6,119 nucleotides of DNA from a virus (lineage: Duplodnaviria > Heunggongvirae > Uroviricota > Caudoviricetes): the IMG/VR virus record IMGVR_UViG_2630968639_000003; one strand, given 5' to 3'. Below are positions 3,001 to 6,000 of this stretch, one piece after another. The first letter of the stretch is position 1, and every line of letters begins with the position of its first letter. A program made the position numbers.

Positions 3001-6000
3001 TTATCCCACAGCAGTTTCACCCTGCCATTAACCACCTTCTCCACCAGCTCTTCCGCCACGATCTGACGCGCCTCTTCTTCCGAAAAAATGTCGGGGTTAT
3101 CCGGAAAACGGACGGTATACGGGGCGGCTTCACTGACAGAGACCACTGGCAGGGCAAAACGGGCGTACAGCATTTCCTTGACGGTATCGGAGCCCACCTC
3201 ACACAAAAACACACCACGCTGGTTGCGCTTTTTGGGCATGGTGATCACCGGCTTGCCGTACACCGATGCCCCTTTTATGGGAAGCACAAAAAAAGTGCCG
3301 TGTTTCCTGGAACGCTGATACACAATGTCCTGGTCGATACCACCGGTATCCCAGCAGACACGGGAAATGGAAATTTCAGTACCGTCAGCATGACGATATT
3401 TTTTCCGGATCACCGTATCAACACGTTTAAGGGTGTCCTCGTCTTCCGGTCGCCCCATGATAATTTGCTTATCAATCAGAAAGGCTTCTTCGCCGGGAGC
3501 CCAGCCCCAGACATAAATTTCATAGCGATCTTTCTGGGAGTCGATCCCGGCGGTCAGGTAAACCACCCGCAGGGGAACCTGCGCACCATAGTGGCAGACT
3601 TTTTCCAGCAACAACTCAAAGCTCAGTTTTTCTGCCACGGCCTCTTCATAGGGCTCCCCGAGCGTGGTGTTAATAAACGTCTTAACACCGTTCGGATCCT
3701 TCAGCGCATCCAGCCAGTCATAAACAATCTGTACCCAGGTGGTGAACGGACTGTACGCTGTCCACACGTGGTACGTGATTGAGCGCGGTGGCGGCATCTC
3801 CTCATCACCGGCGCTGTAAAATGCCAGGCCGTCGCGCGTCCACATCCCGGTATTGTCACAAATCCAGCGCCCGTCGGTCTGGTCAAGTTCCGACTGCCGG
3901 ATCACACAGCCATTATGTTCACACAGGTAATACACCGTTTCCGGTTTACCCTTCTCCCATTTCAGGCCAAACGGCGTCGCATCATCGCCAAACTTCAGAT
4001 ACTGGGCCTCCCCGCAATGAGGGCAAGGGACATAAAACCGCATGAAATGCGCAGATTCATTCGCGGCTTTCTCAATCTGGCAGGAGCCTTTAATTTTCGG
4101 CGTTGAGCCGCGTATGGATTTAGGCCATACCGAGCCTTCGATACGTTTATCGCCAAGCAGCGTCGGCGAGCCTTCTTTTTCCACATCCGGTTCAAACGAG
4201 GAGAGTTCGTCATAGCAGACCACATCCACAGATTTTTCACGGTAGTTTTTAGCTGCGGCACCGCCCAGGCACCAGAACCCCACGCCGGAGGAAAAACGCT
4301 TCAGGGTAAGTGTATTATCGCGGTGCTTTCTTCCGTACCATGGAGCCAGCTCCAGCAATGCAGGGACATCCCTGATCGTTGGCTCAACATGAGATTTCAT
4401 GAAATCTTCTGCCGCAGAATCTGTTGGCTGAAAAAGCAGACTGTTACGGGATTTATGCTCAATAAAATAAGCCTCCACCCCCAACAGCATTTTGGTGTAA
4501 CCAACGCGCGCCGATTTAATCAGATTAACGGTGCGGATCCGGTCATTTCCCATGCTGTTCATAATGGCAACCTGAAACGGCAGGGTTTCCCATTGTCCGG
4601 GAGTGTATGAAGATTCTTTCGGCAGATAATAATGTTGATCAGCCCACTGAACCGTCGTCAGTGGAACCGGAATATTGAGAGATAAAAGCCCTGTAGCTAT
4701 CGCACCGGCTGCATTAGCTGCCTTCTGTGCGTCTGAAATCATCAATCCACCTGCCCACGTTTTCACCGGCTTTAGCTGCAACATTGGAGGCTTTCGCGAT
4801 TTCAGTTTTCACCACATCAAGGTGTGATGGTGAAATATCCGGATATTTACGCTGTAATGTCAGCGGCACACGTACAAGTATCCCCGAAATCTCCTGTGCC
4901 ACACGTTGCAGAATGAAGGTAAACAATTCCGTTTCCAGCACCAGCCCTTCTTCACGGGCATTTTTCAGCTCCTGTGCGTCAGCCTGTGCTTTGGTGAGCC
5001 GGTAGCGTTCATAGTCAATGGTGCCGGGTTGTAAATCTGATTCTGCAGCCGCACGCAAATCTTCCAGTTCTTTGCGGAGCTTTTCGTTTTCGATATCTTT
5101 TTCCCGCTGCGCATACCACTCAATGGCTTCTGCAGTATTGAACATGGCTTCGATACCTTTGCCTCCCCCCGACAAAACTCTCAGCCCCTGACTTTGCCAG
5201 CCAGTGATTGTTCTGACATCGCACTCAAAAATTTCCGCCAGTTTCTTTTTGTTAACCTTCACGGCACATATTCCTCACAAAAAGAAGAAAGGATCTCAAA
5301 ACGCTTTTTTCAGCGAAAAATCACCGCTGCCAGATCCTTTCTTTTTTTTAAGAAAACCCTATTAAACAACAGGTTAGCCAGAAGAAGAACGGATCTGCTT
5401 TTTCCCTGAAAATTTTCATAAATAGCGCGTTTTTGCGCGTCCCCAGACCCTCGGTGTTTCAGGTTCTGGAAAGGACCCATAAAAAAGAGAACAATTATCA
5501 TTGCATTGAAGACATCAATCTTGTTGTATTGCCACAAATCAGGGCCATTAAACAAACATGTCAAAGAATAACAATTCAAAGTGACCTGCCAATTAATAGG
5601 CCTGATAACTAATTAATGATATTTCCGTTTTCCCGCTAGAATATGTTCTATAATGCAGGATAACTTTTGTATTTTCATTCAAAGCATTAATTATTGATTG
5701 TTTTGATATGTCTGGAAATTGGTTTTGAATATCAGCAACCAATGTTTCAAGATAAAGATCAACCTCTCTGCGCGGTGGTACACAACATAAATTGTATAAA
5801 TAGTTATTAACTATATTCGTAACATTTCTCATGCCCACAATGCCTCATGATAAAAAATATTAACCTGTATTCACTCCTGATATAATATCATAAAAAAAAT
5901 CCAACTTATCCTTTCCATCAAAGTGGTAATGACTCCAACTTATTGATAGTGTTTTATGTTCAGATAATGCCCGATGACTTTGTCATGCAGCTCCACCGAT

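Follow-up and report, generated by a model that had tools for sequence, protein, structure and literature searches.

The cohesive-end site (cos) of phage lambda is the textbook model of viral terminase recognition and cutting, and the locus described here raises the question of how a site with lambda's architecture comes to hold a different cohesive end. The window, meaning the whole stretch that was analysed, comprises 6,119 nucleotides of a tailed virus (Caudoviricetes; IMG/VR record IMGVR_UViG_2630968639_000003). It matches positions 2527742-2533859 of Escherichia coli ETEC1746 (pig faeces, Belgium; NZ_CP122727.1) at 100% and, in minus-strand reading, is the left arm of a lambdoid prophage. 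An original prediction, drawn from the DNA letters alone, held that this phage has an unusual cohesive end and that a co-evolved specificity of the nuclease of gpA, the large terminase subunit (TerL), is implied. The cohesive end is very likely noncanonical, with a predicted 12-nucleotide (nt) 5' overhang. The site is probably best explained as the cos of a lambda-type packaging module in a Rac-site prophage, with a core that the nuclease would not read and that would be both variable and exchanged between elements.

On the minus strand the region reads ...ATGGGTCCT TTCCAGAACCTGAAACACCGAG GGTCTGGGGACG CGCAAAAACGCG CTATTTATGAAAATTTTC AGGG..., and the coordinates of its parts are collected in Table 1. 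The original prediction described cosQ (GGGTCCT) and a block inside the left end as conserved with lambda, at a spacing that differs by 1 nt, and these observations hold throughout. Both elements are present, the block CTATTTATGAAAATTTTC is identical to lambda bp 25-42 at 18/18 positions, and the interval between them (TTCCAGAACCTGAAACACCGAG GGTCTGGGGACG CGCAAAAACGCG) is 46 nt long, compared with 47 nt in lambda. Because the distance from the nick to cosB is the same as in lambda, the 1-nt deletion falls in the spacer between cosQ and cosN, and the homologue of lambda GGGCGGCGACCT is thus GGTCTGGGGACG (5449-5438). The nicks would lie between 5450 and 5449 on the minus-sense strand and between 5438 and 5437 on the opposite strand. 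The non-lambda string originally reported for this interval, GGGTCTGGGGACGCGCAAAAACGCG, is indeed present at 5450-5426, but its 12-mer had been set one base too far to the left.

Alignment with the reference lambdoid cos sites of lambda and phage 21 (one of the checks originally proposed) gives a shared architecture around a cosN that is identical to lambda's at 6/12 positions, which places the site outside the canonical lambda/21/phi80 cohesive-end group. The left half of cosN, GGTCTG, agrees with the conserved GGGCGG at 4/6 positions; the left nick flank is AG where lambda has CG, and the CG of the right flank is retained. The pattern cosQ-N22-GG-N7-ACGCGC occurs once in the window, compared with 0.00 expected (200 shuffles). 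Neither a copy of canonical GGGCGGCGACCT nor a second cosQ plus cosN arrangement occurs anywhere in the 46-kb prophage region, and no record in the phage collection begins at this site.

Downstream of cosN, the repeat AGATCCKTTCTTCTT occurs in three copies (0.03 expected by chance), and these form the R3-I1-R2(inverted)-R1 layout of lambda with R sequences of the Gifsy-1 type. The I1 element is a candidate binding site for integration host factor (IHF), proposed from its position and from its match to phage 21 I1 (AAACAACAGGTTA, 10/13 positions). Genes for Nu1-family and gpA-family terminase subunits follow directly after cos, as is required of a lambda-type cos. Some side observations concern the right flank, CGCAAAAACGCG, whose lambda equivalent is CGCGGGTTTTCG, with a T4 tract in lambda and an A5 tract in the window. 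This swap possibly alters the polarity of an intrinsic bend. Compared by eye, the flank matches the lambda reverse complement CGAAAACCCGCG at 9/12 positions and lambda in forward orientation at 5/12. It also matches the reverse complement of the lambda 12-mer at 9/12, again by eye; no claim of an origin by inversion of lambda is made.

The same arrangement recurs elsewhere and is referred to here as family A, defined by CTGAAACACCGRG to the left of cosN, GG-N7-ACG as cosN, and CGCAAAAACGCG followed by CTATTTATGA to its right. A 91-nt query over the site matched at 104 places, spread over 83 of the 5426 complete E. coli genomes and mainly from pig, ruminant, and food isolates. The 91-nt site is identical in at least 13 genomes, and a single E. 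coli genome holds up to three family-A sites. A right-flank scan of IMG/VR yielded 19 contigs, and about 10 further cases came from loci selected by TerL; 120 loci with any cosQ...TTATGAAAATTTT arrangement served as context. Scans of genomes and metagenomes used a loose pattern of 17 specified bases and returned mostly chance matches in unrelated bacteria. The metagenomes gave 23 matches with cosQ/cosN context, and among species-representative genomes only Escherichia whittamii has a family-A site (cos context was present in 1 of the 52 matching genome contigs). Among phage records, family-A cos was found only in the LT-IIb phage fragment SerU-LTIIb and in vB_EcoM-705R4. When the entire window was compared with phage records by megablast, only phage 21-like genes matched and cos did not; the distant search mode was needed.

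Carriers of family-A cos include toxin-converting prophages and satellites. In STEC383, an Stx2e-converting prophage has the module at 98.7% DNA identity with an identical cos (L369 5399-8090, 9001-14925); stx2e, two holin genes, and an endolysin gene lie directly upstream of cos, and a full head and contractile-tail set follows it. SerU-LTIIb (L001 233-1382) has LT-IIb toxin genes at the position equivalent to stx2e. The presence of these toxin genes beside the module associates it with toxin-converting prophages of animal E. coli. Satellites resembling phage-inducible chromosomal islands (PICIs) carry a convergent pair of family-A cos sites separated by 400-1000 bp (L351 4298-5106; L046, L096, L115, L118). 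In L351 a small, Rpp-like helix-turn-helix (HTH) gene sits between the two sites, and genes resembling capsid E and decoration D lie upstream. Within one PICI-like element the cores of the two sites differ, and one site has a helper-type cosB. The unusual end thus belongs to a real lambda-type cos, as originally proposed, whose architecture is shared by dozens of independent prophages and by PICI-like satellites. The family-A cos is a maintained type and not a decayed one-off. Family A is probably a distinct and fairly widespread variant of lambda cos with an unread, highly variable centre.

The pattern of variation was read from 80 loci gathered by similarity to the window TerL, with cos read afterwards, a design that avoids selecting on the cos sequence. 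Thirty of these loci, with 26 haplotypes, have family-A architecture. Across the haplotypes, entropy is 1.06 bit at cosN bases 3-9, 0 at bases 1, 2, and 10-12, and 0.17 bit in the flanks (30 nt per side). All positions but one of an 8-nt cosQ segment are invariant, and the 3' part of the spacer, CTGAAACACCGRG, is kept across family A. Divergence was expressed as p-distance (the fraction of differing sites per pair) among the 19 loci whose TerL is at least 97% identical to the window's. The core differs at 0.437, the cosN edges at 0, and the flanks (60 nt in total) at 0.057; in terL, codon position 3 differs at 0.079 and positions 1 and 2 at 0.006. The contrast between codon positions indicates strong purifying selection on the terminase gene, and core divergence is more than five-fold that of terL third positions. 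At least 17 distinct 12-mers occur over all sources, eight of them among these 19 loci.

The cosN 12-mer has a partial two-fold symmetry. Within the 17 distinct 12-mers, bases 2 and 11 are complementary in 17/17, bases 3 and 10 in 14/17 (T..A), and bases 4 and 9 in 16/17 (C..G or A..T); at the window site the complementary pairs are 2/11, 3/10, 4/9, -1/13, and -3/15. The pairs 2/11, 3/10, and 4/9 place a two-fold axis between bases 6 and 7, as in lambda. Read inward from each nick, the half-sites of family A are G^GGT(C/A) and G^CGT(C/A), compared with G^GGGC and G^AGGT in lambda. The third base after each nick, G in lambda, is therefore T on both sides in family A.

A mechanism that would produce this pattern can be outlined. 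By homology with lambda, a Nu1 dimer and IHF would bind cosB and position gpA, which would nick 12 bp apart and leave the predicted 5' overhang GGTCTGGGGACG. The family-A nuclease complex would need only the bases beside the two nicks, together with the flanks, and the central bases would go unread, as in an interrupted-palindrome restriction site. Such a core could change freely and could also be swapped between phages and satellites, either through recombination in the conserved flanks or when packaging runs from one cos to a different cos. Free change and exchange together would let the core diverge beyond the third codon positions of the adjacent terminase gene. The distribution of cores is consistent with exchange: the core GGTCGGTAGACG accompanies both a 99%-identical TerL and the 44%-identical TerL of 705R4, and GGTACGTGTACG and GGTCATGGGACG each occur both in phages and in PICI-like satellites. 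The same cores in such different backgrounds suggest that alleles circulate from a common pool through recombination in the flanks, and Rac-site prophages of this kind encode RecE and RecT. In lambda, packaging that begins at one cosN can be completed at another; the mismatched ends are viable, and both alleles persist in the progeny (PMC4669245). Deamination of the overhang was set aside as a source of core variation because many of the differences in the haplotype lists are transversions.

The co-evolution proposed originally would require that the specificity of family-A gpA has been altered to match its cosN (G3 to T, C10 to A, and the AG flank), such that a gpA of the lambda or 21 type would not cut the site. 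The pairing of cores and terminases makes this unlikely. TerLs of at least 98% identity to that of the window go with eight different 12-mers. At 95-96% identity the site is GCCACG/GGGCGGCAGCGG/CGCGGATTTTCG (nicks as slashes), and one TerL of 92.5% identity goes with exact lambda GGGCGGCGACCT, so GGGCGG-type cosN is in use at 92-96% identity. In the vB_EcoM-705R4 lineage, a gpA-family TerL that is 44% identical and a non-Nu1 small subunit accompany the family-A site AAACACCGAG/GGTCGGTAGACG/CGCAAAAACTCG. Together these cases do not support a co-evolved specificity, and the cohesive end of the window can be accounted for without any dedicated change in gpA. This agrees with published work in which the gpA nuclease shows little sequence specificity of its own and is placed by Nu1 at cosB (PMC9026076). 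Two kinds of evidence nevertheless favour co-evolution. Both half-sites have changed alike, with GT in place of GG at positions two and three past the nick, and certain TerL residues follow the cos type. A search for TerL columns that predict the cos type without exception found none; when the criteria were relaxed, D419, E570, R573, and I575 (numbered on the 652-aa open reading frame, ORF), all in the GpA_nuclease domain, are exclusive to family-A cos within the window TerL lineage (49/49 loci versus 0 of about 100 others). The association persists even though cosB/terS modules of at least four kinds separate cos from that part of terL, and L168, the one family-A locus without the signature, has the canonical left half GGGCGG. 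The signature was rejected as a causal determinant because the 705R4 lineage lacks it and yet has a family-A cosN. The changes are also few and conservative (K to R, L to I), D419 is the lambda residue as well, and signature-bearing family-A loci also have GGG and GGA at bases 1-3. The association is probably one of linkage by descent, which accounts for it.

Two other readings of the divergent core are decay and selection for difference. Decay, by which the site would be a mutated, nonfunctional remnant in a defective prophage, draws on the state of this copy. An IS1A element (L148 19483-20180) abuts the AT-rich 450 bp upstream of cosQ; the ETEC1746 annotation between the Q antiterminator and cos includes no recognizable holin, endolysin, or toxin genes; and several early-region genes of the prophage are pseudogenes. 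The IS1 junction and the absent lysis and toxin genes give this copy the look of an IS1-associated deletion derivative, and the prophage is probably not active on its own; porcine Stx2e prophages, moreover, are without reported virions. Decay of the site is very unlikely all the same. It would hardly leave cosQ, the flanks on either side, bases 1-2 and 10-12, and three R repeats untouched while altering only the seven central bases, and fixed nick surroundings with a conserved terminase and a divergent core do not fit the decay of a dead site. The family's presence in so many genomes, the identical copies of its 91-nt site, the intact terminase genes, and the complete lysis and structural modules of relatives also speak against it. 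Purifying selection on the terminase, and the retention of the same cosN type by helper-dependent satellites, argue that the lineage is in use in nature. The other possibility treats the core as an identity tag, selected to differ between co-resident phages and satellites. The excess of core over terL divergence, the occurrence of up to three sites per genome, and the paired but different cores of single PICI-like elements could all be read in this way. Import of old alleles from a shared pool would explain the same excess, and cores do recur in distant backgrounds; any benefit of end incompatibility is hypothetical, and mismatched lambda ends cost only about four-fold in yield (PMC4669245). 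Selection for difference is accordingly quite unlikely, and equally so in its most specific form, in which the seven central bases are an actively diversifying, laterally exchanged tag of Stx2e/LT-II prophages and PICI satellites and the terminase reads the outer GGT...ACG only. Relaxed constraint with exchange is preferred; active diversifying selection is possible but unsupported.

Several points weigh against an unread, exchanged core as the explanation of the window site. The prophage that contains it may be defective, given its IS1 element, missing lysis genes, and pseudogenes. Family A departs from the published rules for cosN, and its TerL may differ functionally in ways invisible in the sequence. 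The length of the overhang and the positions of the nicks are deduced from alignment and symmetry, and another even length on the same axis may apply. The covariation of bases 4 and 9 is suggestive and may represent only one or two evolutionary events.

The prophage that surrounds the site (L148 1720-43001) is integrated in ETEC1746 beside ttcA, which is the Rac site, and has the genes intR, xisR, ralR, recE/recT, kilR, sieB, and ydaT. It is a head-tail mosaic, with lambda-type head genes and a P2-like contractile tail (baseplate V/W/J/I, sheath, and tube). Within the window, the genes for Nu1, gpA, gpW, and portal are all intact, as judged by a Pfam search of the window proteins. The longest TerL ORF is 652 aa from 4784 and overlaps Nu1 by 71 nt, and the RefSeq start at 4742 gives 638 aa; phage 21 gp2 has 642 aa, and the true start of the window TerL is uncertain. 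This TerL is about 65% identical to the lambda-type TerLs of IMG/VR contigs. An unannotated ORF of 81 aa (5593-5838, minus strand) lies in the AT-rich interval between IS1 and cosQ, where relatives have moron or toxin genes; it has no match in Pfam.

Table 1. Coordinates of the cos subsites and neighbouring features in the window
Feature	Position	Strand	Basis or remark
IS1 element end, outside cos	5925..6119		IS1A transposase annotation; homology to relatives ends at 5924
cosQ heptamer GGGTCCT, packaging-termination subsite	5472..5478	-	direct reading; 7/7 identical to lambda and phage 21 cosQ
cosQ-cosN spacer TTCCAGAACCTGAAACACCGAG, 22 nt	5450..5471	-	alignment; lambda spacer is 23 nt
Predicted cosN cohesive-end 12-mer GGTCTGGGGACG	5438..5449	-	register from spacing to the cosB-side block and from the symmetry axis
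Right flank CGCAAAAACGCG, conserved	5426..5437	-	single variable position among the 26 haplotypes of TerL-selected loci
Block CTATTTATGAAAATTTTC	5408..5425	-	alignment with lambda bp 25-42, 18/18 identical
cosB R3 repeat AGATCCGTTCTTCTT	5382..5396	-	Gifsy-1-like type; distance from cosN equals that of lambda R3
Candidate IHF site I1, TAACCTGTTGTTT (reverse complement of AAACAACAGGTTA)	5364..5376	-	position and phage 21 annotation
cosB R2 repeat AGATCCTTTCTTTTT	5332..5346	+	orientation opposite to R3 and R1, as in lambda
cosB R1 repeat AGATCCTTTCTTCTT	5282..5296	-	repeat search
Small terminase subunit, Nu1 family, 182 aa, GTG start	4714..5262	-	Pfam Phage_Nu1, E = 3e-85; RefSeq annotation
Large terminase subunit gpA (TerL), ATPase and endonuclease domains	2826..4784	-	Pfam GpA_ATPase and GpA_nuclease; RefSeq
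gpW head-tail joining protein	2613..2822	-	Pfam gpW
Lambda-family portal protein (gpB)	1045..2616	-	Pfam Phage_portal_2

Family A reverses the pattern of constraint known from lambda: the centre is free and the right edge fixed, and G has become T symmetrically at the third position past each nick. It amounts to a natural mutagenesis experiment on what gpA-type nucleases need, and the four TerL residues offer a testable lead and a cheap target for mutagenesis. The module packages toxin-converting prophages (Stx2e, LT-IIb) and satellites, and so bears on the possible mobilization of toxin genes. Prediction of phage ends by searching for GGGCGGCGACCT would miss family-A sites. Should the core prove to be an identity tag, end compatibility would structure DNA exchange and co-packaging between phages and satellites in porcine and ruminant E. 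coli.

Lambda-like phages have been defined by 12-base 5' ends that resemble lambda's (Feiss and colleagues, PMC4669245). In that account natural variation in cosN is confined to bp 7-12 (bp 9 and 12 in N15 and phiD326; bp 8, 9, and 11 in Gifsy-1), and cosQ, the GGGCGG left half, and the CG dinucleotide beside each nick are described as conserved under selection. The cosN of mEp213/LLS, GGGCGGCGCGCT, fits the bp 7-12 rule (PMC12315714), and a survey by Vahanian (2017), as cited secondarily, describes the first 4 bp and 2 bp on each side as conserved. Family A violates the published rules at bp -2, 3, 4, 5, and 6, and its bp 10-12 are fixed instead. N15, phiD326, and mEp213/LLS have lambda-like 12-nt ends a few bases off lambda and change only bp 7-12, whereas family A changes bases 3-9 and fixes 10-12. 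No earlier description of a family-A cosN was found in the searchable literature, which excluded Vahanian et al. 2017 (Virology 509:140).

With lambda itself the window shares the identical cosQ heptamer and 18-nt block, the cosN-R3 spacing, the R3-I1-R2(inverted)-R1 layout, the gene order Nu1-A-W-B, and the partial symmetry of cosN. It differs from lambda (GGGCGGCGACCT, a 12-nt 5' end) at six of the 12 cosN positions, bases 3 and 5 in the left half among them, and in its AG left flank, its spacer shorter by 1 nt, its A5 in place of the T4 tract, and its R repeats (GATCC... compared with TTTCC... in lambda). For the genes, phage 21 is the nearest sequenced phage, with DNA identities of 77% from Nu1 to C and about 88% over Nu1-A and with the same Nu1 length and layout. 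Its DNA match ends inside Nu1 and does not cover cos; in contrast to the window, phage 21 has the exact lambda cosN and another cosB R sequence, GTCGGTACTTCTCG. Gifsy-1 shares the cosB R-repeat type CAGATCCGTTCTTCTT, and the cosB/Nu1 region is 74% identical over 190 nt of DNA. Gifsy-1 differs from the window in that it keeps GGGCGG and the CG flank and varies only in the right half; its TerL is 83% identical.

Gram-negative PICIs have two cos sites per island (e.g., cos1/cos2 with rpp in EcCICFT073), an arrangement whose purpose has been stated to be open (PMC6092414, PMC6739421). The PICI-like satellites described above (L351 and others) resemble them in having family-A cosQ/cosN beside an Rpp-like HTH gene, whereas the window has a phage cos with a full cosB and its own terminase genes. 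By analogy only, family A also recalls BglI and SfiI, whose interrupted-palindrome sites have outer half-sites recognized by a symmetric complex and an unread centre inside the staggered cut. These enzymes are unrelated to terminase, which is positioned by cosB-bound Nu1 and IHF and not by half-sites alone.

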